A stretch of 64,000 nucleotides of DNA from Chitinophagales bacterium (GTDB lineage Bacteria; Bacteroidota; Bacteroidia; Chitinophagales; JAHQVX01), in the NCBI GenBank assembly GCA_965215685.1, contig OZ244113.1:2429652-2493651 (forward strand). The letters run 5' to 3'. Position 1 is the stretch's first letter. Each line of letters opens with the position of its first letter. The translations under genes and the position numbers were made by a program. The notes below the pieces were generated by a model. The model saw nothing but the letters and a program-made list of their open reading frames with translations, was not told the origin of the DNA and ran no database searches. Below, one piece after another: positions 5,376-57,660 of this stretch.

Positions 5376-8300
5376 ATGACCAACTCTTCCCAAATAAAAC
5401 CCATAAGAAAACTGCTTGTAGCCAATCGTGGCGAAATTGCCATTCGTGTTTTTAGAGCTGCATCAGAATTAAATATTACCACAGTGGCTATTTATACCCA
5501 CGAAGACCGCTATTCCTTACACCGATACAAAGCAGATGAGGCCTATCAGGTAGGAGCTGACAATGAACCGCTTAAACCTTATTTAAACATTGAAGAGATT
5601 ATTCGGGTGGCTAAAGAAAACCAGGTAGATGCCATTCATCCGGGCTATGGATTCTTGTCGGAGAATGAAAATTTTGCACAAGCCTGTATCGAAGCAGAAA
5701 TTATTTGGATTGGTCCTTCTCCGCGGGTTATGGCGGCGTTGGGAGACAAAATATCAGCCAAAAAAGTAGCGCAAGGGGCGGGTGTACCAATTATTGATGC
5801 AAGTAAGGGAGCCATTAAGAGTTTAAATGAACTTAAATCCGAAGCTCAAAGAATAGGTCTTCCGGTAATGCTAAAGGCTGCATCGGGTGGTGGTGGACGT
5901 GGAATGCGAGTTGTACGTAATGATGCTGATTTGGAAAAGGCATTTAAAGAAGCATCAGGCGAAGCTAAAACAGCCTTTGGAAATGCCGCCGTTTTTGTAG
6001 AAAAGTATATTGAAAAGCCGCGGCATCTTGAAGTGCAGTTACTTGGTGATAGCCATGGTAATCTGGTGCATTTATTTGAACGTGATTGCTCGGTTCAACG
6101 GCGTTTTCAAAAAGTGGTTGAAATTGCGCCCTGCACCAATTTAAAGCAGGAAACCAAAGAAAAACTATATAGCTATGCACTGGCCATTGGAAACGAGGTA
6201 GGCTATCAGAATACAGGTACTGTGGAGTTTTTGGTGGATGCAGCTGAAAATATTTTCTTCATTGAAGTTAATACCAGAATTCAGGTAGAGCATACAGTTA
6301 CCGAGGTGGTAACCGGTGTGGACATTGTGCGCAGTCAAATACTAATTGCTGAAGGTTTGCCCCTGCATCATGAACAGGTGGGTTTAGCAAATCAGGCCGA
6401 GATAAACTATCGTGGTGTAGCACTACAATGTCGAATTACCACTGAAGATCCAAGCGATAACTTTAAACCTGATTATGGCCGTATAGTTGTGTATAGAAGT
6501 GCGAGCGGCTTTGGAATTCGTTTGGATGCCGGAAATGCCTATCCGGGCTGTACTATCTCACCTTTCTTCGATAGTATGTTGGTAAAGGTAACCGCCTGGG
6601 GTAACAACCTTGAAGATGCCGCAGCCCGCATGCACCGTGCCCTGCGTGAGTTTAGAATACGGGGTGTTAAATCCAATATTGGTTTTCTGCTCAACTTGTT
6701 AAAACATGAGGAATTTAGAAGTGGAAATACCACTGTTCATTTTATTGGCGAGCATCCTGAACTATTAGAACCGCCCGCGTGGAAAGACAGAGCCACCAAA
6801 CTAATTCGTTACATCGGGGATGTAAACGTAAACGGCCATCCCGATATAAAATATGTGAATCATGATAAAATATTGAAAGAAGCTGTTGTTCCCGAAAGCA
6901 AAGCTGCCAGGCAAAACGGCAGTAAACAACGACTTACCGAACTCGGCCCCGAAAAATTTGCTAAATGGTTGAAAGACGAACCTAATATACACTATACCGA
7001 TACTACTTTCAGAGATGCCCATCAATCCTTGCTCGCTACACGTGTACGCACATACGATCTGATGCAGGTGGCCGAAAGTTTTTCAAAAAATGTGGCCCAC
7101 GATCTTTTCTCTATGGAAGTTTGGGGCGGTGCCACTTTCGATGTGGCTATGCGCTTTTTAAAAGAATGTCCCTGGCAAAGACTAGCCGTCATACGGGAAT
7201 CCATACCTAACACCTTGCTACAGATGCTGCTTAGAGGATCTAACGCGGTAGGTTATAAGGCTTATCCTGATAATCTGGTAGAAGAATTTGTGGAGCAGGC
7301 CTGGAAAACGGGTATTGATGTTTTTCGGATTTTCGATTCATTGAACTGGATGGAAGCCATGAAAACCAGTGTGAAAGCGGTTAGAGAACGTACCGATGCC
7401 CTTGCCGAAGTTTGTATTTGCTATACCGGAAATGTATTGCAGGAAAAGGATAACAAATTCAACATACAATACTATCTCAACCTTGCCCGACAGATAGAAG
7501 ATGAAGGAGCTCATATCATCTGTATTAAAGATATGGCCGGCTTGCTGAAACCCGATGCGGCGACATTCCTGATCTCGAGATTAAAAGAAGAAGTTGACCT
7601 TCCAATTCACCTGCACACGCACGATACATCTTCCATTCAAACAGCAACGTATTTAAAGGCTGTTGATGCCGGAGTAGATGTAGTGGATGTAGCCCTGGCA
7701 TCGCTGTCCGGCCTTACTTCTCAGCCCAGCTTTAACTCTGTAGTAGCTATGTTGGAAGGCCACAACCGTGAGAATAAAATTGATTTAGACGAGCTTAACC
7801 GGTACTCTACGTATTGGGAGACAGTACGAACTTATTACTATCCGTTTGAAACGGAGTTAAAGGCAGGAACAGCCGAAGTTTATGACCATGAAATACCTGG
7901 TGGACAATACTCGAATCTCAGGCCTCAGGCACGCGGACTTGGGCTTGAAGATAAATTTGAGCAGATAAAGGAGAACTACAAAACGGTAAATAGGATGTTG
8001 GGTGGTATGGTAAAGGTTACGCCCTCATCTAAAGTTGTGGGCGATATGGCTATGTTCATGACGGCCAACCATTTAACAGAAGAAGATATATGGGAAAAGG
8101 GTGAAAGCCTGGCCTTCCCAGACTCTATGATCTCTCTTATGAAAGGCGAGTTAGGTCAGCGGGAAGAAGGCTGGCCCGAAAAGTTGCAAAAAATGGTTTT
8201 GAAAAACGAAAAACCATTTACCGACAGGCCCAATGCTCATCTGTACCCTATTGATTTTGAGAAAGAGTATGCTGTTTTCAAGAAAGACTTTCCGGAAATG

Positions 8301-8834
8301 AACGCTTTTGTCAATTTTCTGAGTTATAAACTATATCCAAAGGTATTTCAGCAGTTTTACGAACATTACGAAAAATATGGAGATACCAGTATTCTGCCAT
8401 CACCGGCATTTTTCTATGGCCTTTCACCACACAAAGAGATTTTGGCCGGTATATCGGAGGGTAAAAAAGTCATCATTGAATACTTGAATACCAATGCGCC
8501 TAATGAAAAAGGTGTTCGCCTTGTGTTCTTTAGGGTTAATGGCTCTATTCGTTCCATTCGGGTGAAAGATCAGGCCATCAAAACCGAAACGGTAATTCAT
8601 GTTAAGGCCAATAAAGAAGAGGAGATAGGTTCACCGCTGCAAGGCAGTTTATCGCGGGTGTTGGTAAAACCAGGTGATAAGGTAAAAGCCAGCGATGCCT
8701 TGTTTATAATTGAAGCCATGAAAATGGAAAGCACTATTACAGCCCCCAAAGCCGGCAGAGTAAAGAAAGTATATATCAAAGAAAACACCATGGTAGAGCA
8801 GGATGATCTGGTGGTGGAACTGGATTTTGAATGA
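5376..8834 (+). CDS. pyc: Pyruvate carboxylase, single-chain
   Basis: 1152 aa. N-terminal biotin carboxylase ATP-grasp (GGGGRGMRVV), central carboxyltransferase (LHTHDTS), and C-terminal biotinyl domain with EAMKME. Confidence 0.95.
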   Translation: MTNSSQIKPIRKLLVANRGEIAIRVFRAASELNITTVAIYTHEDRYSLHRYKADEAYQVGADNEPLKPYLNIEEIIRVAKENQVDAIHPGYGFLSENENFAQACIEAEIIWIGPSPRVMAALGDKISAKKVAQGAGVPIIDASKGAIKSLNELKSEAQRIGLPVMLKAASGGGGRGMRVVRNDADLEKAFKEASGEAKTAFGNAAVFVEKYIEKPRHLEVQLLGDSHGNLVHLFERDCSVQRRFQKVVEIAPCTNLKQETKEKLYSYALAIGNEVGYQNTGTVEFLVDAAENIFFIEVNTRIQVEHTVTEVVTGVDIVRSQILIAEGLPLHHEQVGLANQAEINYRGVALQCRITTEDPSDNFKPDYGRIVVYRSASGFGIRLDAGNAYPGCTISPFFDSMLVKVTAWGNNLEDAAARMHRALREFRIRGVKSNIGFLLNLLKHEEFRSGNTTVHFIGEHPELLEPPAWKDRATKLIRYIGDVNVNGHPDIKYVNHDKILKEAVVPESKAARQNGSKQRLTELGPEKFAKWLKDEPNIHYTDTTFRDAHQSLLATRVRTYDLMQVAESFSKNVAHDLFSMEVWGGATFDVAMRFLKECPWQRLAVIRESIPNTLLQMLLRGSNAVGYKAYPDNLVEEFVEQAWKTGIDVFRIFDSLNWMEAMKTSVKAVRERTDALAEVCICYTGNVLQEKDNKFNIQYYLNLARQIEDEGAHIICIKDMAGLLKPDAATFLISRLKEEVDLPIHLHTHDTSSIQTATYLKAVDAGVDVVDVALASLSGLTSQPSFNSVVAMLEGHNRENKIDLDELNRYSTYWETVRTYYYPFETELKAGTAEVYDHEIPGGQYSNLRPQARGLGLEDKFEQIKENYKTVNRMLGGMVKVTPSSKVVGDMAMFMTANHLTEEDIWEKGESLAFPDSMISLMKGELGQREEGWPEKLQKMVLKNEKPFTDRPNAHLYPIDFEKEYAVFKKDFPEMNAFVNFLSYKLYPKVFQQFYEHYEKYGDTSILPSPAFFYGLSPHKEILAGISEGKKVIIEYLNTNAPNEKGVRLVFFRVNGSIRSIRVKDQAIKTETVIHVKANKEEEIGSPLQGSLSRVLVKPGDKVKASDALFIIEAMKMESTITAPKAGRVKKVYIKENTMVEQDDLVVELDFE

Positions 8835-8844
8835 AATGAAATGT

Positions 8845-9630
8845 ATAGACCCTGAAAGGGTTCAATGTTTATAGCCATTAGATTTAAGGGTAATTCGACC
8901 CCTTCGGGGTCGCAGCAATAACCACCAATCTTGTAATAAGCATTTAATCCCTTCGGGATAATCACCTGCGAAGCCTTCGTTTGCCGGTATTTATAAGTTG
9001 GTGTAAACACAGCACGTTATGTCTATCTGCAATTAAGATTATAGAACCCTGAAAGGGTTCAATCTTTATAGCCATTAGATTTAAGGGTCATTCGACCCCT
9101 TCGGGGTCGCGGCAATAACCACCAATCTTGTTATAAGCATTTTATCCCTTCGGGATAATCACCTGCAAAACCTTCGTTTACCGGTATTTGTAAATTGGTG
9201 TAAACACAGCACGTTATGCCTTTCTGCAATTTTGATATAGAACCCTAAAAGGGTTCCATGTTTATAGCCTTTAGATTTAAGGGTAATTCGACCCCCTCGG
9301 GGTCGCAGCACTAACCGCCAATCTTGTTATAAATATTTTATCCCTTCGGGATAATCACCTGCAAGGCGTGAGTTTACCATCATTTTAAAGGTGCTGTAAA
9401 TAACCTTGATTTGATATGCCCGTTTAAAATTTGGAAGTAGAACCCTGAAAGGGTTCAATGTTTATGGTATGTACGTTTAAATGTTATTCGACCCCGAAGG
9501 GGTCGCACCTAAACCCCTGATCAAATAATATCTATTTAATCCCTTCGGGATCTTTCCGATGCAAAATTTACGCTCATACGAAAACGAACTCCGTACTTCC
9601 TTCACTTACCATTGCTTACGGATTATCGTT
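8845..9630 (+). repeat. Tandem array of four ~196-bp units, each with three conserved short hairpins
   Basis: Unit starts at 8845, 9041, 9237 and 9437. Each has GAACCCT-gaa-AGGGTTC, GACCCC-ttc-GGGGTC and ATCCC-ttc-GGGAT in the same order. The fourth copy is degenerate at its 3' end. Confidence 0.85.
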
Positions 9631-32264: not shown

Positions 32265-34848
32265 TTATCTAATTATTGCAAACCTTTCCGTATTTCCTCT
32301 CTTGCCGTCTGAGAGATGCACATAGTACATTCCTTCGGCCAAGCCAGCCATGTATAAGTTTTGCACATATTTAACACCTTTATTTAGATCGCGACTTTCA
32401 ATTGTTTTAACAACTCTGCCATGTGTGTCAAGAATTGTAATATCAAGTTGCGCCATATCATAATGCGGAATGAAACTTACTGTTCCATTTATTTGAATGG
32501 GATTAGGTGTTACCTTCAAATCAAGGAACATCTCTTCAGCAGGTTTGTCTTCTGCCAAAGTGATTCCTCCTGCACGTGTATGGTTCTCATTACATGTAAC
32601 TCCGTGAGCAATGATGTATATCTCATCACAGCCTAATTCAGAGACATCAACCGTTAAAGGGACACCATCTTCCAGACCACTAAACGGATACCGACCGGGA
32701 GCATTATTCTCATTACCGATCTGTAATGGCTCACACCCGATATACAGATGTGTTTCCGTCAGGCTATGTCCATCCGCCATGCTATAAGTCACTTCTACCT
32801 GGCCGTTGTCATATACAACATACAAGTCACCTACATAGGTATCGCTTGAAGCATTGCAATGGGCGGCTCCGGCATGTAGCTCCATGGTGTAATTGTCTTC
32901 AGTCAGCGGTCCGTTAGTCCAACCCCATTTATTGTTGGAAGCACCGGCATCAGTAAAGCAAGTGGCGTTGTCAGCCGACATAGCATATAATGTATCGCAA
33001 TCTTCTTCACAATCTTCATAACAAACTTTCTCACATATTACTCCATGAGTTATTATCCAAAGCGGATCGCAATCCAAAGATGTAACATCAATGGTGTAAG
33101 TATATGTTTGAACGCCGTCATGTGATTCTGAAGATGGATATTGACCTGGAGCTACAGTAGGTTTTCCTCTCTTTGTAGGATATTTATCACATCCAACATA
33201 TACATGACTTTCGGTGAGTACATAACCGTCAATTACTGAGTAAGTAACAACTACCTCATCTCCTTGATAACTCACCATTATATCACCAACATCCAATCCT
33301 TTATCCGTATCGCAAAGAGCAGCACCTGCATAAAGATCTAATGTATATGAACCACCTTCAGAGATTTGGTTTGTCCAACCCCATCGGTTAAACCCATCAT
33401 CAATGAAACAATCAGAATCATTACCGCCTAAAGCGAAGGCTGTTTCACAATCTACATATTCACATACTTCTTCACAGTCAGGATCAGGCTCACAATCACA
33501 AACTTCCTGACAGGTATTACCACCATGTACAATGATGTATAATTCTCCATTATTATCACAATTAAATTCAGATACATCAACAGTATAAGGCACACCATCT
33601 TCCAAACCACTATATGGATATTGACCCGGTGCCACAGTTGGTTTACCTTTTTTATTGGCAGGAATTGGACCACAGCCAATATAAAGATGTGTATCGCTAA
33701 TGGTAAATCCATCATTCATATTGTAGGTAACGGTTACTTCATCATCATGATAGGATACGGAAACCGTACCTGCCAGTTCACCTTTAGATGTATCACACTG
33801 TCCTGCACCGGCCCATACGTCGTAGGTATAATCGTTGCCTTCGATGATCTTGTTGGTCCAACCCCATCTGCTAAATCCGTATTCACTAAAGCATTCGCCG
33901 TCATCTCCTTTGGCAAAGGATGTTTCGCATTCGCCAATTTCACAGCAACGCTCAACTGTTATAGTTTGCGTGTGCTCAACTGGGTTACCGCATTCATCTT
34001 CGGCAGACCACGTTCGTGTTATCACTTTTTCGATAAATTCATCTTCTTCGCATGTGAATTCCATAATATCTTCAACGTATGTTACTTCTACATTATCATC
34101 ACAGTTATCATCGGCAGTAACAATTGGTGCAACCGGTATCTCCTGATCACATTCAACAGTAATGTCTCCGGGTGTTTCGCTTAAGACCGGTGCTGTTTCA
34201 TCGTAGTATCTGGTAACTTTTACTGTTACTTCTTCTGCTGCATTTCCACATTCGTCATCTACATTAAATGTATAGATACGGTATTGACTACAACCGTCGT
34301 CACCGTTCATGATCGGACCGCTTACCCCTGTAATGGTACCTCCGCCTGAGCAGTTGTCAGTCCAGGTAGTGGTAGGAGCTGCCGGCCAATCTTGATTACA
34401 AACCGTAATGTTCACATCATCTAGTGGAGTGATTTCCGGTGCTGTTTCATCGTAGTATCTGGTAACTTTTACTGTTACTTCTTCTGCTGCATTTCCACAT
34501 TCGTCATCTACATTAAATGTATAGATACGGTATTGACTACAACCGTCGTCACCGTTCATGATCGGACCGCTTACCCCTGTAATGGTACCTCCGCCTGAGC
34601 AGTTGTCAGTCCAGGTAGTGGTAGGAGCTGCCGGCCAATCTTGATTACAAACCGTAATGTTCACATCATCTAGTGGAGTGATTTCCGGTGCTGTTTCATC
34701 GTAGTATCTGGTAACTTTTACTGTTACTTCTTCTGCTGCATTTCCACATTCGTCATCTACATTAAATGTATAGATACGGTATTGACTACAACCGTCGTCA
34801 CCGTTCATGATCGGACCGCTTACCCCTGTAATGGTACCTCCGCCTGAG
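32265..34848 (-). CDS. C-terminal portion of a giant HYR-like repeat adhesin: 2.65 repeat units, one divergent HYR-like domain, three Cys-rich ~150-aa domains, and a T9SS C-terminal sorting domain. No own start or signal peptide.
   Basis: The frame is open up to the junction at 34848 (track ORF 32265..34808 begins at an internal Met). The C-terminus KVTPNPIQINGTVSF...GMYYVHLSDGKRGNTERFAIIR is a typical T9SS type A sorting domain. Confidence 0.7.
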
Positions 34849-37800
34849 ATGCAGCAGAAGAAGTAACAGTAAAAGTTACCAGATACTACGATGAAACAGC
34901 ACCGGAAATCACTCCACTAGATGATGTGAACATTACGGTTTGTAATCAAGATTGGCCGGCAGCTCCTACCACTACCTGGACTGACAACTGCTCAGGCGGA
35001 GGTACCATTACAGGGGTAAGCGGTCCGATCATGAACGGTGACGACGGATGTAGTCAATACCGTATCTATACATTTAATGTAGATGACGAATGTGGAAATG
35101 CAGCAGAAGAAGTAACAGTAAAAGTTACCAGATACTACGATGAAACAGCACCGGAAATCACTCCACTAGATGATGTGAACATTACGGTTTGTAATCAAGA
35201 TTGGCCGGCAGCTCCTACCACTACCTGGACTGACAACTGCTCAGGCGGAGGTACCATTACAGGGGTAAGCGGTCCGATCATGAACGGTGATGACGGATGT
35301 AGTCAATACCGTATCTATACATTTAATGTAGATGACGAATGTGGAAATGCAGCAGAAGAAGTAACAGTAAAAGTTACCAGATACTACGATGAAACAGCAC
35401 CGGAAATCACTCCACTAGATGATGTGAACATTACGGTTTGTAATCAAGATTGGCCGGCAGCTCCTACCACTACCTGGACTGACAACTGCTCAGGCGGAGG
35501 TACCATTACAGGGGTAAGCGGTCCGATCATGAACGGTGATGACGGATGTAGTCAATACCGTATCTATACATTTAATGTAGATGACGAATGTGGAAATGCA
35601 GCAGAAGAAGTAACAGTAAAAGTTACCAGATACTACGATGAAACAGCACCGGAAATCACTCCACTAGATGATGTGAACATTACGGTTTGTAATCAAGATT
35701 GGCCGGCAGCTCCTACCACTACCTGGACTGACAACTGCTCAGGCGGAGGTACCATTACAGGGGTAAGCGGTCCGATCATGAACGGTGATGACGGATGTAG
35801 TCAATACCGTATCTATACATTTAATGTAGATGACGAATGTGGAAATGCAGCAGAAGAAGTAACAGTAAAAGTTACCAGATACTACGATGAAACAGCACCG
35901 GAAATCACTCCACTAGATGATGTGAACATTACGGTTTGTAATCAAGATTGGCCGGCAGCTCCTACCACTACCTGGACTGACAACTGCTCAGGCGGAGGTA
36001 CCATTACAGGGGTAAGCGGTCCGATCATGAACGGTGATGACGGATGTAGTCAATACCGTATCTATACATTTAATGTAGATGACGAATGTGGAAATGCAGC
36101 AGAAGAAGTAACAGTAAAAGTTACCAGATACTACGATGAAACAGCACCGGAAATCACTCCACTAGATGATGTGAACATTACGGTTTGTAATCAAGATTGG
36201 CCGGCAGCTCCTACCACTACCTGGACTGACAACTGCTCAGGCGGAGGTACCATTACAGGGGTAAGCGGTCCGATCATGAACGGTGATGACGGATGTAGTC
36301 AATACCGTATCTATACATTTAATGTAGATGACGAATGTGGAAATGCAGCAGAAGAAGTAACAGTAAAAGTTACCAGATACTACGATGAAACAGCACCGGA
36401 AATCACTCCACTAGATGATGTGAACATTACGGTTTGTAATCAAGATTGGCCGGCAGCTCCTACCACTACCTGGACTGACAACTGCTCAGGCGGAGGTACC
36501 ATTACAGGGGTAAGCGGTCCGATCATGAACGGTGACGACGGATGTAGTCAATACCGTATCTATACATTTAATGTAGATGACGAATGTGGAAATGCAGCAG
36601 AAGAAGTAACAGTAAAAGTTACCAGATACTACGATGAAACAGCACCGGAAATCACTCCACTAGATGATGTGAACATTACGGTTTGTAATCAAGATTGGCC
36701 GGCAGCTCCTACCACTACCTGGACTGACAACTGCTCAGGCGGAGGTACCATTACAGGGGTAAGCGGTCCGATCATGAACGGTGACGACGGTTGTAGTCAA
36801 TACCGTATCTATACATTTAATGTAGATGACGAATGTGGAAATGCAGCAGAAGAAGTAACAGTAAAAGTTACCAGATACTACGATGAAACAGCACCGGAAA
36901 TCACTCCACTAGATGATGTGAACATTACGGTTTGTAATCAAGATTGGCCGGCAGCTCCTACCACTACCTGGACTGACAACTGCTCAGGCGGAGGTACCAT
37001 TACAGGGGTAAGCGGTCCGATCATGAACGGTGATGACGGATGTAGTCAATACCGTATCTATACATTTAATGTAGATGACGAATGTGGAAATGCAGCAGAA
37101 GAAGTAACAGTAAAAGTTACCAGATACTACGATGAAACAGCACCGGAAATCACTCCACTAGATGATGTGAACATTACGGTTTGTAATCAAGATTGGCCGG
37201 CAGCTCCTACCACTACCTGGACTGACAACTGCTCAGGCGGAGGTACCATTACAGGGGTAAGCGGTCCGATCATGAACGGTGATGACGGATGTAGTCAATA
37301 CCGTATCTATACATTTAATGTAGATGACGAATGTGGAAATGCAGCAGAAGAAGTAACAGTAAAAGTTACCAGATACTACGATGAAACAGCACCGGAAATC
37401 ACTCCACTAGATGATGTGAACATTACGGTTTGTAATCAAGATTGGCCGGCAGCTCCTACCACTACCTGGACTGACAACTGCTCAGGCGGAGGTACCATTA
37501 CAGGGGTAAGCGGTCCGATCATGAACGGTGACGACGGATGTAGTCAATACCGTATCTATACATTTAATGTAGATGACGAATGTGGAAATGCAGCAGAAGA
37601 AGTAACAGTAAAAGTTACCAGATACTACGATGAAACAGCACCGGAAATCACTCCACTAGATGATGTGAACATTACGGTTTGTAATCAAGATTGGCCGGCA
37701 GCTCCTACCACTACCTGGACTGACAACTGCTCAGGCGGAGGTACCATTACAGGGGTAAGCGGTCCGATCATGAACGGTGACGACGGTTGTAGTCAATACC

Positions 37801-39849
37801 GTATCTATACATTTAATGTAGATGACGAATGTGGAAATGCAGCAGAAGAAGTAACAGTAAAAGTTACCAGATACTACGATGAAACAGCACCGGAAATCAC
37901 TCCACTAGATGATGTGAACATTACGGTTTGTAATCAAGATTGGCCGGCAGCTCCTACCACTACCTGGACTGACAACTGCTCAGGCGGAGGTACCATTACA
38001 GGGGTAAGCGGTCCGATCATGAACGGTGATGACGGATGTAGTCAATACCGTATCTATACATTTAATGTAGATGACGAATGTGGAAATGCAGCAGAAGAAG
38101 TAACAGTAAAAGTTACCAGATACTACGATGAAACAGCACCGGAAATCACTCCACTAGATGATGTGAACATTACGGTTTGTAATCAAGATTGGCCGGCAGC
38201 TCCTACCACTACCTGGACTGACAACTGCTCAGGCGGAGGTACCATTACAGGGGTAAGCGGTCCGATCATGAACGGTGATGACGGATGTAGTCAATACCGT
38301 ATCTATACATTTAATGTAGATGACGAATGTGGAAATGCAGCAGAAGAAGTAACAGTAAAAGTTACCAGATACTACGATGAAACAGCACCGGAAATCACTC
38401 CACTAGATGATGTGAACATTACGGTTTGTAATCAAGATTGGCCGGCAGCTCCTACCACTACCTGGACTGACAACTGCTCAGGCGGAGGTACCATTACAGG
38501 GGTAAGCGGTCCGATCATGAACGGTGATGACGGATGTAGTCAATACCGTATCTATACATTTAATGTAGATGACGAATGTGGAAATGCAGCAGAAGAAGTA
38601 ACAGTAAAAGTTACCAGATACTACGATGAAACAGCACCGGAAATCACTCCACTAGATGATGTGAACATTACGGTTTGTAATCAAGATTGGCCGGCAGCTC
38701 CTACCACTACCTGGACTGACAACTGCTCAGGCGGAGGTACCATTACAGGGGTAAGCGGTCCGATCATGAACGGTGATGACGGATGTAGTCAATACCGTAT
38801 CTATACATTTAATGTAGATGACGAATGTGGAAATGCAGCAGAAGAAGTAACAGTAAAAGTTACCAGATACTACGATGAAACAGCACCGGAAATCACTCCA
38901 CTAGATGATGTGAACATTACGGTTTGTAATCAAGATTGGCCGGCAGCTCCTACCACTACCTGGACTGACAACTGCTCAGGCGGAGGTACCATTACAGGGG
39001 TAAGCGGTCCGATCATGAACGGTGATGACGGATGTAGTCAATACCGTATCTATACATTTAATGTAGATGACGAATGTGGAAATGCAGCAGAAGAAGTAAC
39101 AGTAAAAGTTACCAGATACTACGATGAAACAGCACCGGAAATCACTCCACTAGATGATGTGAACATTACGGTTTGTAATCAAGATTGGCCGGCAGCTCCT
39201 ACCACTACCTGGACTGACAACTGCTCAGGCGGAGGTACCATTACAGGGGTAAGCGGTCCGATCATGAACGGTGACGACGGATGTAGTCAATACCGTATCT
39301 ATACATTTAATGTAGATGACGAATGTGGAAATGCAGCAGAAGAAGTAACAGTAAAAGTTACCAGATACTACGATGAAACAGCACCGGAAATCACTCCACT
39401 AGATGATGTGAACATTACGGTTTGTAATCAAGATTGGCCGGCAGCTCCTACCACTACCTGGACTGACAACTGCTCAGGCGGAGGTACCATTACAGGGGTA
39501 AGCGGTCCGATCATGAACGGTGACGACGGTTGTAGTCAATACCGTATCTATACATTTAATGTAGATGACGAATGTGGAAATGCAGCAGAAGAAGTAACAG
39601 TAAAAGTTACCAGATACTACGATGAAACAGCACCGGAAATCACTCCACTAGATGATGTGAACATTACGGTTTGTAATCAAGATTGGCCGGCAGCTCCTAC
39701 CACTACCTGGACTGACAACTGCTCAGGCGGAGGTACCATTACAGGGGTAAGCGGTCCGATCATGAACGGTGACGACGGTTGTAGTCAATACCGTATCTAT
39801 ACATTTAATGTAGATGACGAATGTGGAAATGCAGCAGAAGAAGTAACAG
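34849..39849 (+). repeat. Inverted block of 20 x 249-bp near-identical units (+21 nt), coding sense on the plus strand
   Basis: GATGATGTGAAC recurs at 34920 + 249k (k=0..19). I found only two variable sites per unit. Sharp junctions at 34848|34849 and 39849|39850. Confidence 0.95.
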
Positions 39850-39902
39850 AGGTTGTGCTCAATGAAGTTGGCCAATCCTGGTTACAGTTAGGTAAAGTAT
39901 AG
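34926..39902 (+). CDS. Repeat-only ORF (20 HYR-like units) created by the inverted block; doubtful as an independent gene
   Basis: 1658-aa open frame with an in-frame TGA at 34845-47 immediately upstream. The first candidate start is GTG at 34926. No signal peptide and no sorting domain. The 3' end reads antisense into the N-terminal fragment. Confidence 0.35.
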   Translation: MNITVCNQDWPAAPTTTWTDNCSGGGTITGVSGPIMNGDDGCSQYRIYTFNVDDECGNAAEEVTVKVTRYYDETAPEITPLDDVNITVCNQDWPAAPTTTWTDNCSGGGTITGVSGPIMNGDDGCSQYRIYTFNVDDECGNAAEEVTVKVTRYYDETAPEITPLDDVNITVCNQDWPAAPTTTWTDNCSGGGTITGVSGPIMNGDDGCSQYRIYTFNVDDECGNAAEEVTVKVTRYYDETAPEITPLDDVNITVCNQDWPAAPTTTWTDNCSGGGTITGVSGPIMNGDDGCSQYRIYTFNVDDECGNAAEEVTVKVTRYYDETAPEITPLDDVNITVCNQDWPAAPTTTWTDNCSGGGTITGVSGPIMNGDDGCSQYRIYTFNVDDECGNAAEEVTVKVTRYYDETAPEITPLDDVNITVCNQDWPAAPTTTWTDNCSGGGTITGVSGPIMNGDDGCSQYRIYTFNVDDECGNAAEEVTVKVTRYYDETAPEITPLDDVNITVCNQDWPAAPTTTWTDNCSGGGTITGVSGPIMNGDDGCSQYRIYTFNVDDECGNAAEEVTVKVTRYYDETAPEITPLDDVNITVCNQDWPAAPTTTWTDNCSGGGTITGVSGPIMNGDDGCSQYRIYTFNVDDECGNAAEEVTVKVTRYYDETAPEITPLDDVNITVCNQDWPAAPTTTWTDNCSGGGTITGVSGPIMNGDDGCSQYRIYTFNVDDECGNAAEEVTVKVTRYYDETAPEITPLDDVNITVCNQDWPAAPTTTWTDNCSGGGTITGVSGPIMNGDDGCSQYRIYTFNVDDECGNAAEEVTVKVTRYYDETAPEITPLDDVNITVCNQDWPAAPTTTWTDNCSGGGTITGVSGPIMNGDDGCSQYRIYTFNVDDECGNAAEEVTVKVTRYYDETAPEITPLDDVNITVCNQDWPAAPTTTWTDNCSGGGTITGVSGPIMNGDDGCSQYRIYTFNVDDECGNAAEEVTVKVTRYYDETAPEITPLDDVNITVCNQDWPAAPTTTWTDNCSGGGTITGVSGPIMNGDDGCSQYRIYTFNVDDECGNAAEEVTVKVTRYYDETAPEITPLDDVNITVCNQDWPAAPTTTWTDNCSGGGTITGVSGPIMNGDDGCSQYRIYTFNVDDECGNAAEEVTVKVTRYYDETAPEITPLDDVNITVCNQDWPAAPTTTWTDNCSGGGTITGVSGPIMNGDDGCSQYRIYTFNVDDECGNAAEEVTVKVTRYYDETAPEITPLDDVNITVCNQDWPAAPTTTWTDNCSGGGTITGVSGPIMNGDDGCSQYRIYTFNVDDECGNAAEEVTVKVTRYYDETAPEITPLDDVNITVCNQDWPAAPTTTWTDNCSGGGTITGVSGPIMNGDDGCSQYRIYTFNVDDECGNAAEEVTVKVTRYYDETAPEITPLDDVNITVCNQDWPAAPTTTWTDNCSGGGTITGVSGPIMNGDDGCSQYRIYTFNVDDECGNAAEEVTVKVTRYYDETAPEITPLDDVNITVCNQDWPAAPTTTWTDNCSGGGTITGVSGPIMNGDDGCSQYRIYTFNVDDECGNAAEEVTVKVTRYYDETAPEITPLDDVNITVCNQDWPAAPTTTWTDNCSGGGTITGVSGPIMNGDDGCSQYRIYTFNVDDECGNAAEEVTEVVLNEVGQSWLQLGKV

Positions 39903-42546: not shown

Positions 42547-42739
42547 AACTTACTTTTTAATTTATTATTTAATTTCTTTTTCCTGATTTTGTAAAATCGG
42601 GCTGCGAAGATAATGGTTTTAATTATTAACCTTAGTTAGAATAATAATTATTAGGTTCAGATTTTTAACAAAATCTATAATTCCCCCTGAAATTAGGACA
42701 GTAAATTAAATTATACTTTAGAATTAAATTTATTGTCAA

Positions 42740-43015
42740 ATGAAGAGAAGAAAATTCACATCAGATTTCAAATTTAAGGTTGTATTGGAAGCCTTAAGTG
42801 AACGCTACAGTATTCAGGAGTTAGCACGTAAATATGAGATACATGCTACCCAGATCAGTAATTGGAAGACCCAGTTCATCATGAACGGGCAACATGTTTT
42901 TGATCGTCCGGCAAAGGATAAAAAGACCGAGGAACAAGAAAGGGAGGAAGCCTTGTTAAAAACCATTGGCCAACAGAAGGTTGAGATTGATTTTTTAAAA
43001 AAAGCCTTATCATGA
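42740..43015 (+). CDS. IS3-family transposase OrfA (HTH)
   Basis: 91 aa, MKRRKFTSDFKFKVVLEALSERYSIQELARKYEIHATQISNWK, with a leucine-zipper-like C-terminus. Confidence 0.85.
   Translation: MKRRKFTSDFKFKVVLEALSERYSIQELARKYEIHATQISNWKTQFIMNGQHVFDRPAKDKKTEEQEREEALLKTIGQQKVEIDFLKKALS
42997..43004 (+). promoter_or_regulatory. A7G slippery site for -1 programmed frameshift (OrfAB fusion)
   Basis: ttA AAA AAA Gcc in the orfA frame. A -1 slip reads KKSLIMKEDV..., which is the orfB frame (orfB is +2 relative to orfA). Confidence 0.6.
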
Positions 43016-43872
43016 AAGAGGATGTGCAACAGAGAAGAGCACATGTTGATAAGGCACACGAGCTTAGTGTTGTTAAGCAATCGGAGTTGTTAAGTATCCA
43101 TCGTAGCGGGCTTTATTACAAACCTGTGGGAGAAACAGTTTTAAATTTGGAGTTGATGCGTCTGATTGACCAACAGTATATGAAATATCCTTTTTTGGGT
43201 GTACCGCGAATGACAGCTTGGCTAAGAAAAGACAAGGGTTATAAGATCAACAAAAAGCGTGTTGAGCGACTTTACCGGTTGATGGGTATAAGTGCCATAG
43301 GGCCAAAGCCAAATACATCTAAAAGGGGCAAAGGCTCAGGACACCGGGTTTACCCATATCTATTAAGATCCTTAGATATTACTCACGCCAATCAGGTATG
43401 GGCAACAGACATCACATACATTCCTATACAGGGTGGTTATTTATATTTATGTGCCATTATAGATGTGTATAGCCGTTATGTGGTAGGTTGGTCTTTATCT
43501 AATACCATGACTTCGGCATGGTGCAAAGATGTGTTGCAAGAAGCTGTAAGCCAGCATGGTAAACCCCAAATACTCAATACCGACCAGGGCAGCCAGTTTA
43601 CAGCCATTGAATTTAGTAGCTGGGTTAGCGAACAGGATATACGTTTAAGTATGGATGGGAAAGGACGAGCCATTGATAACATATTTATTGAACGTTTATG
43701 GCGAAGTGTAAAATATGAGCAAATTTATCTTTACCCTGCAGACGATGGTTTGGAGTGTTACAACGGATTAGTTAAATATTTTACTTACTACAATTGTGAA
43801 AGGCGGCATCAAAGTTTACAAGATGAATGTCCGGTATATTTATACAAACAACGAAAGAAGCAAGTGGCATGA
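43012..43872 (+). CDS. IS3-family transposase OrfB (DDE integrase core)
   Basis: 286 aa with WATDITYIP, LNTDQGSQFTA and ERLWRSVKYE motifs. ATGA overlap with the orfA stop. Confidence 0.9.
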   Translation: MKEDVQQRRAHVDKAHELSVVKQSELLSIHRSGLYYKPVGETVLNLELMRLIDQQYMKYPFLGVPRMTAWLRKDKGYKINKKRVERLYRLMGISAIGPKPNTSKRGKGSGHRVYPYLLRSLDITHANQVWATDITYIPIQGGYLYLCAIIDVYSRYVVGWSLSNTMTSAWCKDVLQEAVSQHGKPQILNTDQGSQFTAIEFSSWVSEQDIRLSMDGKGRAIDNIFIERLWRSVKYEQIYLYPADDGLECYNGLVKYFTYYNCERRHQSLQDECPVYLYKQRKKQVA

Positions 43873-44198
43873 AAACGGCTTTACCACATTTCAACACTAT
43901 GGGTGGAAAAAAAGAATGGTTTTTCCATGTATTGAAATGTGGAAAAGCCTTCATGTCTCACTTAACTTTACATTTTTACTGTCCTAACGATGGGGGGAAT
44001 TATAGTATTGAAAATATCGCTTGGGTGACCCATTTACGGAAGTCAGGAAACTCTTGAATCTTCCTATTTTCAATCGTTCTAACCCCGAGATATTAGCCGA
44101 ACCCAGGTTAAACGTGAATAGTGGATAAGAAATTCCGTTTACGGAATTGTTTGTGTTATTCGTAATAAATTGTCCATAAATGCTTTAATGAATGTTTT

Positions 44199-49890: not shown

Positions 49891-50646
49891 GGTGAAGCCT
49901 GGCTCAGGGTGACGTTGCGTCAACATTGCTAATCGTATCGGAATCTTCGTCATGGTGGGCTTGCCGAACCATGAGTCTTGTTAACGGTATTGATCTCTTC
50001 GTCATGGTGAGCTTGACGAACCATGAGACCTACACTATAGAACAATGCAACACAAGTATCACCCTTCGTCAAGCTCAGGGTGACGTTGCGTCAACATTGC
50101 TAATCGTATCGACATGGTCGTCATGGTGAGCTTGACGAACCATGAGTCCTGTTAACTGTATTGATCTCTTCGTCATGGTGAGCCCGCCTGATTGACTTAG
50201 TCGGGCAGGCTTGACGAACCATGAGACCTACACTATAGAACAATGCAACACAAGTATCACCCTTCGTCAAGCTCAGGGTGACGTTGCGTCAACATTGCTA
50301 ATCGTATCGGAATCTTCGTCATGGTGGGCTTGCCGAACCATGAGTCTTGTTAACGGTATTGATCTCTTCGTCATGGTGAGCTTGACGAACCATGAGACCT
50401 ACACTATAGAACAATGCAACACAAGTATCACCCTTCACTTCGGCTTCGCTCAGTGCAGGCTGGCTCAGGGTGACGTCGTGTCAACATTGCTAATCGTATC
50501 GGAATCTTCGTCATGGTGAGCTTGACGAACCATGAGTCCTGTTAACTGTATTGATCTCTTCGTCATGGTGAGCCCGCCTGATTGACTTAGTCGGGCAGGC
50601 TTGACGAACCATGAAACCTACCCTTCGTCAAGCTCGGGGTGACGTA
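49891..50646 (+). repeat. BIME-like mosaic of palindromic units (about 4 composite units of 169-198 bp)
   Basis: GCTCAGGGTGACGttgCGTCA heads at 49902, 50073, 50271, 50463 and 50632. Hairpin unit TCATGGT-gagcttgacga-ACCATGA occurs twice per composite. Two copies carry a nested 27-nt insertion (50172-50224 and 50562-50614). Confidence 0.85.
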
Positions 50647-53425: not shown

Positions 53426-56400
53426 CTATTGAAAATAACGCACCCCATTTTCAAAAAGTGCCTGGTACTTATTGCCCGGAATGTTCTTGTAACAGTTTAA
53501 TCCGTACCGTTCTCCATGGCCCATTTTACCAAATATTTTACCCGTTGGATCGGTAATTCCTTCAATGGCAAAGTAGCTGCCGTTAGGGTTGTGTGGTCTT
53601 TCAAGGGTTGGGTTGCCAGCATGGTTAACATATTGTGTAGCCACCTGCCCATTCTCGAAAAGCTCTTTGGCCAGTTTTTCACTAACGATGAACCTGCCCT
53701 CTCCATGAGAAATAGCAATATCGTGCATTTCTCCAATTTCAAAACCGGCAAGCCAGGGAGAAGTGTTGCTAACCACTTTGGTTTTCACGATCTGGGAAAT
53801 ATGACGACCAATTTCATTATGAGTTAGAGTGGGAGAGTGCTCATCTACTTCACCAATTTTTCCAAATGGTAGTAGTCCGCTTTTTACCAATGCCTGAAAA
53901 CCATTGCAAACTCCAAGGATCAAACCATCACGCTCCAACAATCGATAGATCGAATCCTTTATTCTTTCATTGCGCAATACGGCCGTTATAAACTTCCCGC
54001 TTCCATCCGGCTCATCACCGGCGGAGAAACCCCCTGGAATCATAAATATTTGACTGTTGTCAATGGCTTGTGCTAAAGATGTTATTGATTCCTTAATATG
54101 GTCTTTGGTCAGGTTTCTGAAAACATTGAACTCCACTTTCGCACCTGCCCGTTCAAAGGCCAGTTTGCTCTCGTATTCACAGTTCGTGCCGGGGAATACG
54201 GCTATAGTCACCTTTGGATTGGGATTTCGAATTTGGCCTCCCTTGTGGGCATTCGCCGACATTTCCTCCACAATGTGGGAGGAAGAGTATCCCTCCTTAT
54301 TAAAGTGGGCTCCTTTCCCCCCCTGCCAAGGGTGGGATGTCCGGAGGACAGGGGGGGAAGTCGGAAATATCTCCTCCAAACCTCCCTGCCACACCGTTAG
54401 TGCTTTTTCACCATCTATTTTTTCATCGTCTATAATGAATGAAAACGCTTCGGTTGTAATGCCAATTTTAGCGAGGTTTTCATGTTGTAATTGTTCCCTG
54501 CTTTCAAATACTATGGCACCATAATCCCTTTCAAACCAATTCCATTCTCCCTGAACGGCAAAACCAATCTTATTGCCGAAAGCCATTTGTGAAAGGGTTT
54601 GAGCCAGTCCGCCTGTTTTAATGGATGCTCCGCTCAATATTTTACCTTCTTTCACCCAATTGTAATATTGACTGAAATTTTCTTTCAGAGTTGAATTATC
54701 CGGCATACCATTTTCAAGCGGAACATGCTGTAGAAGATAGATGTAACTACCGGGTTGTTTAAATTCTGCCGAAACCGCTTTTTCAGTATCAATAGTAGTG
54801 ACGGCAAATGAAATTAAGGTTGGCGGTACATGAATGTCATTAAAGGTGCCACTCATGCTATCCTTTCCACCAATAGCTGCAATGTTAAAAGCATCTTGTA
54901 CATATAATGTGCCCAGGAATGCCTGGAACGGCAAGGCCCAATTCTTCGGGTCTCTGCCCAACTTTTTAAAATACTCCTGGAAACTTAAACGAACCTTAGA
55001 AACATCACCACCCATTGCTACTATTTTGGCCAGTGATTCAATTACGGAATAAGCTCCTCCATGAAAAGGTGACCAGCTACTTAATTCGGGATCGAAGCCC
55101 CAGGTCATGGCACTGGCAGTAGTTGTATCGCCCTCTTCAACGGGGATTTTTTGCAGGCTGCCTTCCTGCGGACTTAGCTGGTACTTTCCGCCAAAAGGCA
55201 TAAATACTGTGGTGCCGCCAACTGTGCCATCAAACATTTCATGCAAGCCTTGTTGAGAGCAGTGGTTGAGGTGGGAGAGTTGGGTGAGCCATTTGTTCCT
55301 TGATACTATTGCTTCACTTTCTTGAGCAGGAGTATTAGAAGATTGACCCCCCTCGGCCTTCGGCCACTCCCCCCTTGATAAGGGGGGAGACTCTCCCCCC
55401 CTGTCAAGGGGGGGATGTCCCGATGCTAATCGGGACAGGGGGGGTACTTCAACACTCGCCTCCTGCCGTACCCCATTGCTATCCAAAAACTTCCTGTCAA
55501 GATCAACAATGATTTTTCCCCGCCAATGCATAACCAGTCTATTGGTATCTGTTACCTCGGCAATTGGCGTGCATTCCAGGTTTTCTTCGTCAGCGAGGTC
55601 TTTAAATTTTCTGACATCACCTGCTTCCACAACAACAGCCATTCGTTCCTGGCTTTCACTTAATGCGATCTCTGTTCCATTTAGACCTAAATACTTCAAT
55701 GGAACTTTGTCCAGATTGATCTGCAAGCCATCGGCCAATTCTCCAACAGCCACGCTTACTCCTCCGGCACCAAAGTCATTACATTTTTTAATGAGTTTGA
55801 GTGCTTCGGGGTTTCTGAAAAGCCGTTGGATCTTTCTTTCTTCCGGGGCATTACCTTTTTGCACTTCGGCTCCGGCAGTAGTTAGAGATTCCTCGGTATG
55901 TTCCTTTGATGATCCGGTTGCTCCGCCCACTCCGTCACGGCCTGTTCGTCCGCCAACTAGCAGAACTACATCACCTGCCACCGGACTTTCTCGTCTAACG
56001 TATTCTTCTTTGACTGCACCCACTACCGCACCAACTTCCATGCGTTTGGCTTTGTAACCATTGTGGTAGATCTCTGAGATCTGTGTTCCGGCCACACCAA
56101 TTTGATTGCCGTAGCTGGAGAAACCATGTGCAGCTTCGGTGGTTATTTTTCTCTGGGGAAGTTTTCCCGGTAAGGTGTCTTCCACTGTCTCAAACGGATT
56201 GGCACAGCCCGTTACCCGAACTGCCTGATACACATATGCTCTTCCGCTTAAAGGGTCTCTAATGGCACCACCGAGACAGGTACTGGCTCCACCAAAAGGC
56301 TCTATCTCGGTAGGATGGTTGTGTGTTTCATTTTTAAACATAAGCAGCCAGGGTTCCTGCGTTCCATCTGTTTTTAACACATTTATTCTTACACTGCAGG

Positions 56401-57298
56401 CGTTTATTTCTTCACTGACTTCCAGATCACTTAATAAACCGCGTTGTTTCAGGTCTTTTACGGCAATGGTAGCCATATCCATTAAACATATTGGCTTTTC
56501 ATCTTGTCGCGTTCCATAAACATGTTCTCTTTTGGATAAATAGGCCGAATAAACTTCCTGCATTTGGCTACCCAATTCATTTGCAGGAAATACAACGTCT
56601 TTGATCTCAGTCAGGAATGTAGTATGCCGGCAATGGTCGCTCCAATAAGTGTCCAACAGCTTTAGTTCTGTTTCTGTGGGGTTGCGATCTTCGGAACTAA
56701 AATATTGCTGAATAAATGCGAGGTCATCTAAGTTCATGGCCAAACCGAACTGTGATTTTAGTTGAAGCAGATCTTCCTGTTTGGCCGTTATAAAATCTTC
56801 TATAACCGGAACTTTTTGTGGTTTGGGTGCAGTCTGAGATTGTGGTAATTTTGAAAGATCTTTTTCCCGGCTTTCCACAGGGTTGACCAAATAGGTTTTG
56901 ATCTTTTCTTGTTCATCCTGCCTCAATGGCCCTTCAAAAACATACAGAACAGCACTTGAAATTTTGGTAGAAACAGATTCTGAAGCAATCAATTGCAAAC
57001 ACTGAAGAGCTGAATCTGCCCGTTGATCAAACTGACCGGGTAAAGGCTCAATGGCAAGGTGAAACCTGCCTGCAAGATCGGGATGATCAACCTTTTCATC
57101 AGCTACCGCATCTATTAGAATGGCGGAAGTGAATTCATGGTATAGCTCTGTATTTATACTTATAACATCATATACGGAGTACATACTAATACCGGAAATA
57201 TTATTGATATCCAAATCTTGTTCAAGTCTTAATTTAAGCCTTTGTGACACATATCTGAATTGGGGCTTTTTTCGAATGAATAGGCGATAATCCGGCAT
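53426..57298 (-). CDS. purL: Phosphoribosylformylglycinamidine synthase, single-chain
   Basis: 1290 aa. AIR-synthase-like halves (NETHNHPTEIEPFGGA) and a C-terminal glutaminase domain (GVCNGFQ). Contains two G/C-rich palindromic in-frame segments. Confidence 0.95.
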   Translation of the reverse strand: MPDYRLFIRKKPQFRYVSQRLKLRLEQDLDINNISGISMYSVYDVISINTELYHEFTSAILIDAVADEKVDHPDLAGRFHLAIEPLPGQFDQRADSALQCLQLIASESVSTKISSAVLYVFEGPLRQDEQEKIKTYLVNPVESREKDLSKLPQSQTAPKPQKVPVIEDFITAKQEDLLQLKSQFGLAMNLDDLAFIQQYFSSEDRNPTETELKLLDTYWSDHCRHTTFLTEIKDVVFPANELGSQMQEVYSAYLSKREHVYGTRQDEKPICLMDMATIAVKDLKQRGLLSDLEVSEEINACSVRINVLKTDGTQEPWLLMFKNETHNHPTEIEPFGGASTCLGGAIRDPLSGRAYVYQAVRVTGCANPFETVEDTLPGKLPQRKITTEAAHGFSSYGNQIGVAGTQISEIYHNGYKAKRMEVGAVVGAVKEEYVRRESPVAGDVVLLVGGRTGRDGVGGATGSSKEHTEESLTTAGAEVQKGNAPEERKIQRLFRNPEALKLIKKCNDFGAGGVSVAVGELADGLQINLDKVPLKYLGLNGTEIALSESQERMAVVVEAGDVRKFKDLADEENLECTPIAEVTDTNRLVMHWRGKIIVDLDRKFLDSNGVRQEASVEVPPLSRLASGHPPLDRGGESPPLSRGEWPKAEGGQSSNTPAQESEAIVSRNKWLTQLSHLNHCSQQGLHEMFDGTVGGTTVFMPFGGKYQLSPQEGSLQKIPVEEGDTTTASAMTWGFDPELSSWSPFHGGAYSVIESLAKIVAMGGDVSKVRLSFQEYFKKLGRDPKNWALPFQAFLGTLYVQDAFNIAAIGGKDSMSGTFNDIHVPPTLISFAVTTIDTEKAVSAEFKQPGSYIYLLQHVPLENGMPDNSTLKENFSQYYNWVKEGKILSGASIKTGGLAQTLSQMAFGNKIGFAVQGEWNWFERDYGAIVFESREQLQHENLAKIGITTEAFSFIIDDEKIDGEKALTVWQGGLEEIFPTSPPVLRTSHPWQGGKGAHFNKEGYSSSHIVEEMSANAHKGGQIRNPNPKVTIAVFPGTNCEYESKLAFERAGAKVEFNVFRNLTKDHIKESITSLAQAIDNSQIFMIPGGFSAGDEPDGSGKFITAVLRNERIKDSIYRLLERDGLILGVCNGFQALVKSGLLPFGKIGEVDEHSPTLTHNEIGRHISQIVKTKVVSNTSPWLAGFEIGEMHDIAISHGEGRFIVSEKLAKELFENGQVATQYVNHAGNPTLERPHNPNGSYFAIEGITDPTGKIFGKMGHGERYGLNCYKNIPGNKYQALFENGVRYFQ

Positions 57299-57380: not shown

Positions 57381-57660
57381 TGTCCTTCGGCATGCTCAGC
57401 GCGATGCACTTTGGTGAGCCCCCCGACTGAACGAAGCAAGCGACTAAGAAAGATAAACTAACCCTTACATGCCCTTATGTGCCTTATGTGGTTTCAAAAA
57501 CAATGCAAAACTAACCATATAAGTTCATATAAGGTTATTCATATAAGAGCATATAAGCGGTGTTCAACTCTTCGGCAGGCTCTGAGCTCTACGCTTCCCG
57601 ATTATACGAAGCAAGCGATTGAGAAAGATATACCAACCCTTACATGCCCTTATGTGCCTT
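57381..57660 (+). repeat. CTTATGTG-type elements (C): one partial plus one ~148-bp copy in tandem
   Basis: ...CATGCCCTTATGTGcCTTATGTGGTT (ends 57492), then AACCATATAAGttCATATAAGgttattCATATAAGagCATATAAG ... CATGCCCTTATGTGCCTT (57513-57660, right tip degenerate). Confidence 0.7.

Follow-up and report, generated by a model that had tools for sequence, protein, structure and literature searches.

How do two stretches of G/C-rich, self-complementary DNA come to lie, translated and in frame, inside the gene of a core metabolic enzyme? The question is raised by purL, which encodes the large single-chain formylglycinamidine ribonucleotide (FGAM) synthase, in a 64,000-nucleotide (nt) stretch of DNA from a Chitinophagales bacterium (contig OZ244113.1, positions 2,429,652 to 2,493,651), referred to here as the window. 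An earlier note on this DNA had pointed to two G/C-rich palindromic segments inside purL and had proposed that an element resembling repetitive extragenic palindromic (REP) sequences inserted twice and persists as linker sequence. Both segments, termed element A and element B, were confirmed. We consider it probable, at roughly 0.75, that they are palindromic elements similar to REPs and bacterial interspersed mosaic elements (BIMEs), fixed as in-frame linker insertions and resembling Rickettsia palindromic elements (RPEs) in behaviour. The features on which the argument is built are the following.

53426-57298, minus strand: purL, an intact open reading frame (ORF) of 1290 amino acids (aa), assigned from the ORF, Pfam and PDB matches, and orthologue alignment.
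55346-55444, plus strand: element A, a composite insert of 99 nt with four hairpins closed by an outer stem; its antisense translation is PurL residues 619-651 (PPLSRLASGHPPLDRGGESPPLSRGEWPKAEGG).
55347-55352, plus strand: outer C6 run of A, paired with the terminal G7 run (55438-55444) in minimum-free-energy structures.
55355-55365, plus strand: hairpin h0 of A, GGCC-TTC-GGCC, from sequence and fold.
55369-55387, plus strand: hairpin h1 of A, CCCCCC-TTGATAA-GGGGGG, from sequence and pattern search.
55395-55414, plus strand: core hairpin h2 of A, C7-TGTCAA-G7 (C7 at 55395-55401, TGTCAA at 55402-55407, G7 at 55408-55414).
55416-55437, plus strand: middle hairpin h3 of A, TGTCCCGAT-GCTA-ATCGGGACA, a perfect 9-bp stem, from fold and shuffles.
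55438-55444, plus strand: terminal G7 run of A, read from the sequence.
54317-54357, plus strand: element B, a three-part unit of 41 nt, C7-TGCCAA-GGGTGGG-A-TGTCC-GGA-GGACA-G7; its antisense translation is PurL residues 981-994 (SPPVLRTSHPWQGG).

The two elements have a common layout, in which a C7-TGYCAA-G7 core is followed by a variable hairpin and then by a G7 run. In B these parts are C7 (54317-54323), TGCCAA (54324-54329), GGGTGGG (54330-54336), a single A, TGTCC-GGA-GGACA (54338-54350), and G7 (54351-54357). In A the core as a whole spans 55395-55444, with a single A separating h2 from h3. The earlier note had B exactly right in coordinates and sequence; for A, the layout stands, but the C8 that it typed is a C7 and its limits of 55393-55447 are off by 2-3 nt. 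Two further small hairpins that it placed before A are present as h0 and h1, and h1, when read on the minus strand, matches the core hairpin apart from two mismatches (CCCCCTTATCAAGGG), a divergent copy that makes it the inverted partner of h2. The ends of the core form 11-nt inverted repeats, CCCCCCCTGTC...GACAGGGGGGG. The middle hairpins of A and B differ by a symmetric indel, which leaves a 9-bp stem in one and a 5-bp stem in the other, both perfect; the 9-bp stem of h3 was reached in none of 2000 shuffles. At 20 nt for h2 and 13-22 nt for h3, these are short GC-rich stem-loops, as in REPs. Element A folds at -41.8 kcal/mol as DNA (z = -6.9) and at -76.4 kcal/mol as purL mRNA (z = -6.8), while the fold of B is weaker (z = -2 to -2.7). 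Mismatch-tolerant pattern searches of the window for further copies recovered the hairpin core, at up to three mismatches, five times (0.03 expected) and the 3' half of the unit twice (0.00 expected), in every case at the A and B sites. All locally pairing runs of at least six C or six G in the window fall at these sites as well.

Could ordinary Pro/Gly-rich linkers, encoded by CCC and GGG, have become palindromic by accident or through replication slippage? CCN codons for Pro pair with GGN codons for Gly, which disposes linkers of the PP...GG type to self-complementarity, and both sites are length-variable linkers across the orthologues. This explanation has to contend, however, with a single motif of 41-50 nt being read in two frames: the C run begins at codon position 1 in A and position 2 in B, and the common DNA gives PPLSR.../HPPLDRGG in A versus PPVLRT.../HPWQGG in B. 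Placed in the frame of B, the loop of A (TTGACA on the coding strand) would read CCT-TGA, whereas the TTGGCA of B gives Trp; one of the three coding-strand frames is open in A, and all six frames are open in B. Composition sets the inserts apart from the surrounding coding DNA, as had been claimed, with a GC content of 68% in A and 76% in B against 43.7% in the rest of purL, and with palindromic folding of A at z of about -7. GGG makes up 56% of Gly codons in the inserts versus 6-8% elsewhere, and CCC 70% of Pro codons versus 22-28% elsewhere; neither is a preferred codon of this genome. In addition, the middle hairpin encodes no Pro or Gly in spite of its perfect 9-bp and 5-bp stems, no orthologue presents an intermediate, and other genomes carry the identical 20-nt hairpin, loop included, as a repeat between genes, as described below. 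Because the two copies are read in different frames and use Pro and Gly codons that are rare in the host genome, the similarity between A and B is, judged by sequence, one of homologous DNA and not that of a native linker. The two frames, the foreign codons and GC content, and the perfection of both middle hairpins therefore rule out an ordinary Pro/Gly linker, and native expansion is in our view largely refuted and very improbable.

The gene that carries the inserts looks functional because its conserved and catalytic residues are intact. Alignment of PurL with its orthologues covers 100% of the protein, and invariant and catalytic residues are retained, for example GVCNGFQ and GHGER in the glutaminase domain. 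Pfam assigns FGAR-AT_linker to residues 179-225, AIRS_C to 441-592, and GATase_5 to 1028-1289, and the best PDB matches are the large Salmonella-type PurL structures (1T3T/6JTA). One intact minus-strand ORF runs through both elements, so the read-through without stops and the peptides quoted in the earlier note were correct. Insert A (residues 619-651) follows AIRS_C and insert B (about residues 981-996) precedes the glutaminase domain, and PurL is 1290 aa long here versus 1218-1261 aa in the best 120 homologues. Site A is a clean 33-aa gap in all of approximately 20 diverse aligned orthologues (alignment A1, columns 630-662). At site B the closest orthologues have a linker 17-19 aa shorter than the one here, in which the excess includes the SPPVLRTSHPWQGG encoded by B. 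The alignment that had been proposed as a check thus bears out lineage-specific insertion: the residues of A and B are absent from the approximately 20 orthologues, and no linker intermediates occur among them at either site. The two closest relatives, both Bacteroidota, have a PurL that is about 60% identical and purL loci of 38-40% GC, and no C/G-run hairpins were found in about 24 kb around their purL genes. A structural model was likewise consistent with a linker position. In an AlphaFold2 model of PurL residues 533-1290 (predicted template modelling score 0.75), the predicted local distance difference test (pLDDT) falls below 50 at sub-residues 89-129 and 450-470/475-491, and the inserts occupy sub-residues 87-119 and 449-464, within these low-confidence stretches. 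Going by the Salmonella PurL structure, we place site A close to where the two AIRS-like halves meet and site B in the connector to the glutaminase domain. Pfam boundaries, orthologue gaps, and pLDDT all agree with the linker positions suggested earlier, and by these measures A and B are lineage-specific insertions at inter-domain linkers.

The host itself belongs to a lineage that is poorly sampled, as the best full-length homologue of the DnaX encoded in the window is only 54% identical; the nearest named DnaX homologues are from Saprospiraceae and Lewinella, and type IX secretion system sorting domains are also encoded in the window, both of which identify the host as a member of the Bacteroidota. 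The best named matches of PurL are from Fusobacteria, which probably reflects the sparse sampling of the host lineage. In the window, purL lies near genes for a DUF4920 protein, a lipoprotein, FolA (folA), and a PD40-repeat protein. In the two closest relatives (L244 and L245) it adjoins ubiD, and in L244 it also lies with purE, purC, purF, and purM; local gene order is not conserved between the window and these two loci.

A chimeric assembly or misplaced G/C-rich reads could in principle place such segments in a gene, since C7 and G7 homopolymers are error-prone and the DNA comes from one contig of 3.2 Mb. The reading frame, however, is kept over six homopolymer runs of 6-7 nt in A and over the C7, the G7, and the interrupted GGGTGGG of B. 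The structured palindromes are too specific for base-calling errors, and the same type of element occurs in independent assemblies that include complete chromosome-level metagenome-assembled genomes (MAGs). We therefore give an artefact almost no credence.

Element A also attracted the only tRNA call in the 64 kb, a tRNA-Asp(GTC) that ARAGORN placed at 55370-55444 on the plus strand, and this call bears on whether the structures are kept for a function in RNA or DNA, either as an antisense tRNA-like or small RNA gene or as mRNA hairpins that pause ribosomes for co-translational folding of PurL. The stable mRNA structure at A (-76 kcal/mol) and the location of both sites at domain boundaries would fit such a function, and the perfect hairpins of A suggest either recent arrival or selection. 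The tRNA itself did not hold up: the forced cloverleaf breaks h1 and needs a non-canonical T-loop of 10 nt, Rfam gave no tRNA match to A at E<=1 and nothing meaningful from other families, and no tRNA was called on about 160 copies of the hairpin family elsewhere. The C-TGTCAA loop of A mimics an anticodon loop, and we judged the call to be a false positive. Beyond the tRNA, no orthologue needs such pauses and the family is mostly intergenic elsewhere, so a function at the RNA or DNA level appears improbable. The idea that the TTGACA loop belongs to a promoter or a terminator was rejected as well, given that the spacing to a -10-like box is wrong and that no T-run follows the hairpin in most copies.

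If A and B derive from a repetitive element, related hairpins might be expected elsewhere. A scan with CCCCCCTGYCAAGGGNGGG, taking one genome per species, returned at least 120 loci; the loci retrieved, with two viral loci counted as well, contained at least 164 matches. Among the matches listed, the 20-mer core of A is identical in many MAG loci, and the loci listed carry labels as diverse as Nitrospinota, unclassified 'bacterium', Competibacteraceae and other Proteobacteria, Zavarzinella, Cloacimonadota, and Rickettsiales (31% GC), among others; some of the assemblies with the hairpin are complete chromosome-level MAGs. The commonest variant among the matches listed is ...CCCCCCTGTCAAGGGGGGG-TA-GGGGGGG-TTG..., and an abundant MAG variant, G7-TAG-G7, contains GTAG. 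Copies in MAGs are often inverted doublets 70-100 nt apart or parts of mosaic arrays with other small palindromes, and in low-GC genomes most copies among the matches listed lie outside long ORFs. The loop is a mark of the family, as a loop-agnostic sample of viral contigs contained the TGYCAA/TTGRCA loop in none of 285 C7-N6-G7 hairpins. One Rickettsiales MAG of 31% GC (L105) has six C6-8/TTGACA/G6-7 hairpins in non-coding arrays at 441-791 and 6567-7116, and with six copies in an AT-rich genome the family is not tied to GC-rich hosts.

One orthologous pair of loci shows a clear difference at an intergenic site that is filled in locus L087 (5052-5489, about 430 nt of stacked small palindromes including an inverted doublet) and empty in locus L115 (5019-5032, 13 nt). 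The flanks are 92-96% identical, and the palindromes of L087 lie just after a stop codon. Both genomes are dense in BIME-like mosaic arrays in which units of several types are stacked. The part of the 'REP-like element' claim that concerns a multi-copy, mostly intergenic hairpin core with a filled and an empty site is thus supported in other genomes, but the window itself holds no further copy.

The three-part layout of A and B recurs in Competibacteraceae, in another proteobacterial MAG, and in Cloacimonadota, with different middle sequences and with the pairing kept. A copy from Burkholderiales has the C7...G7...G7 layout with a middle segment that does not form an evident hairpin. Of the 11 distinct middle segments compared over the lineages, 8 form perfect hairpins of 4-9 bp, with six different stems among them. 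The proteobacterial composite also includes a GC hairpin (GGCGC-TGC-GCGCC) and a CCCC..TT-loop-AA..GGGG hairpin, modules of the types of h0 and h1 in A that lie on the other side of the core.

Residence in coding sequence is not confined to purL. A composite of about 120 nt is read through as FPPCQGGVSQRDGGV...NHPGAARHPSLSKEGN in MmeI-family restriction-modification enzymes of about 1000 aa, in three paralogues of one proteobacterial MAG (L042, L044, and L093) and two genes of a Competibacteraceae MAG (L081 and L108). The composite occupies one site in all five genes, in the methyltransferase domain just upstream of the NPPF motif (2749-2870 in L044), and the five cases are probably one ancestral event. 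In MmeI (5HR4) the corresponding segment is shorter by about 36 aa, and at other loci the same composite lies within short ORFs or none. Another hairpin, C8-TTGGCA-G6 at 2175-2194 of locus L049, contributes the residues IPPLGRGEL to a 675-aa multihaem cytochrome c (ORF 1201-3228, minus strand), at a point between two of its cytochrome c modules; the neighbouring ORF contains a second hairpin, CCCCCCTGTTATGGGGG (3507-3523). In-frame copies occur in both orientations relative to the coding strand. At the protein level, a 34-aa insert peptide had no match among 1.84 billion representative proteins, and the 40-aa MmeI insert peptide had two marginal short matches; searching by peptide thus revealed no further hosts.

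Several observations weigh against insertion of a mobile repetitive element into purL. No copy was found outside the gene in the window, even at three mismatches (the chromosome measures 3.2 Mb), and two copies within one gene with none nearby are unexpected for random insertion. The intergenic DNA of the window carries other repeat families, none of which resembles the C7/G7 element. A metagenome scan for the window-specific variant gave one chance match (L123, without the C/G runs). As for a mover, a Y1/HUH transposase was absent from the 20 window ORFs scanned with Pfam, and the HUH...Y motif had no match in the window and about 1 Mb of loci, although this screen was crude and genes for REP-associated tyrosine transposases (RAYTs) are single-copy, so that the absence means little. 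Neither a target-site duplication nor an exact DNA boundary is definable, with the nearest orthologues being only about 60% identical. The link across phyla, finally, is drawn from 20-45 nt of low-complexity sequence and a shared layout, and may reflect convergence. To account for two copies with none nearby, B may have been copied from A within the gene, the two may be remnants of a burst that has since died out, caught at sites where an imprecise deletion would destroy the gene, or further copies may lie elsewhere in the genome.

Copying within the gene can also be turned into an explanation of its own, in which a single insertion took place and one copy (B, or the core of A) was then derived from the other, whether through ectopic recombination within the gene, through gene conversion, or through a template switch at the C/G runs; the element would then not be, or would no longer be, mobile in this genome. 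The junction GGGATGTCC...GGACAGGGG is common to A and B only, with two matches in the window and no true match in metagenomes, and this agrees with a single arrival, as do the lack of a third copy in the 64 kb and the placement of A and B about 1 kb apart in one gene. On the other hand, the copies are read in different frames and sit at functionally analogous but unrelated linkers, no flanking homology that could drive recombination is visible, and in other species ORFs have been hit twice by REPs (Di Nocera et al., PMC3733652). A single insertion followed by local copying is conceivable, and we consider it unlikely.

On the preferred reading, that A and B are REP/BIME-like elements fixed as linkers, copies of a short GC-rich multi-hairpin repetitive element would have entered purL in the ancestry of a Saprospiraceae-like Bacteroidota lineage, by transposition-like insertion or possibly with A arriving first and B being copied from it. 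They would have survived because both insertion sites were inter-domain linkers (one following the first AIRS-like half, the other preceding the glutaminase domain), because their lengths fitted the reading frame, and because the frame in use was free of stop codons. Read through by the ribosome, the inserts would give a PurL that presumably still works two extra loops, one of 33 aa and one of about 14 aa, both rich in Pro, Gly, Arg, and Ser and probably disordered. The elements would be passengers without a host function, and a candidate mover is an enzyme acting on DNA hairpins, for example of the HUH/Y1 RAYT type.

A wider proposal is that the C-run/G-run hairpins (C7-TGYCAA-G7, variable hairpin, G7) form one superfamily that spreads horizontally in many phyla, is moved by an enzyme, is unusually safe inside genes, and is a recurrent source of linkers. 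Whichever strand or frame is read, a C7...G7 palindrome specifies Pro-Pro...Gly-Gly, and the hairpin core with the TGCCAA loop is free of stops in all six frames. We put this forward tentatively and hold it to be doubtful. If true, the superfamily would supply ready-made flexible inter-domain linkers for large enzymes such as PurL, the MmeI-type enzymes of Competibacteraceae and another proteobacterial MAG, and the multihaem cytochrome c; and if one mobile superfamily survives preferentially in linkers, it would offer a testable route to new inter-domain loops. The purL case itself would add a clear example, from beyond Rickettsia and Proteobacteria, of an intact core metabolic enzyme that has taken up selfish palindromic DNA as a translated linker, and it brings to light a candidate cross-phylum hairpin family, C7-TGYCAA-G7. 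It also carries warnings for annotation: such inserts inflate protein length, create spurious low-complexity regions, and can trigger false tRNA calls, of which an automated pipeline would probably annotate one at A.

The other repeats and the mobile element of the window are listed below.

8822-9507: four tandem units of about 197 nt, each ending in a GACCCC-NNNN-GGGGTC hairpin.
49902-50628: four units of about 170-198 nt downstream of dnaX.
57395-57660: two units of about 60 nt (...gaagcaagcga.t.agaaagata...cccttacatgcccttatgtgcc) just upstream of purL.
42675-44005: an IS3-family insertion sequence with 31-nt imperfect terminal inverted repeats and a transposase ORF with an rve integrase core (43012-43872).

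The IS3-type element encodes the only transposase seen in the window, and its ends are unrelated to A and B. Its inverted repeat holds CCCCCTG...GGACAG; a link to A and B on this basis was judged coincidental, as there is no extended similarity. Elsewhere in the window, about 23 tandem repeats of 249 nt that are 99-100% identical (34187-39876) extend over two divergent giant ORFs (32265-34808, minus strand, and 34926-39902, plus strand), whose junction is a perfect inverted repeat of 662 nt. This inverted repeat could reflect a real head-to-head pair of repeat proteins or an assembly problem.

How, then, do A and B compare with known systems? No published description of the C7-TGYCAA-G7 family was found in the literature. 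REPs, which are tagged by GTAG or CGTC, are GC-rich hairpins of 20-40 nt that are mostly extragenic and that in several species also lie within ORFs (PMC3733652). These intragenic REPs occur as singles, dimers, and clusters encoding 20-82 aa, with some ORFs hit twice and some being the sole ORF hit in their species (PMC3733652). The flanks of A and B read ...G7-TAC and ...G7-AAG, with neither tag, and both copies are intragenic; formal membership in the REPs fails on these two counts. The inverted doublets and mosaic arrays in MAGs, and less clearly the inverted pair of h1 and h2 within A, are reminiscent of BIMEs and of REP doublets that form hairpins (REPINs). The differences from the REPIN/RAYT system are that the doublet of A has diverged, that the element is intragenic, and that no RAYT gene was seen in the (weak) screens. 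[quoted passage not shown] Yeast mitochondria provide a further parallel, as their AT-rich genome is host to mobile GC clusters that are short and palindromic and of which some lie in frame in VAR1; these are organellar, eukaryotic, and unrelated in sequence, so that the parallel is an analogy only. The closest counterpart in behaviour is the RPE, a short palindromic repeat that resides in frame in unrelated housekeeping genes, is translated at sites compatible with the protein fold, and has intergenic copies too (PMC10969869). RPEs are about 100-150 bp long and AT-richer, have family consensus sequences, and are restricted to Rickettsia and relatives, whereas A and B measure 99 and 41 nt, have C/G homopolymer stems, and reside in a member of the Bacteroidota, a host that makes membership in the RPEs unlikely. 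The likeness is one of behaviour: as with RPEs, A and B lie in frame, leave the ORF intact, and occupy sites that the structure tolerates.

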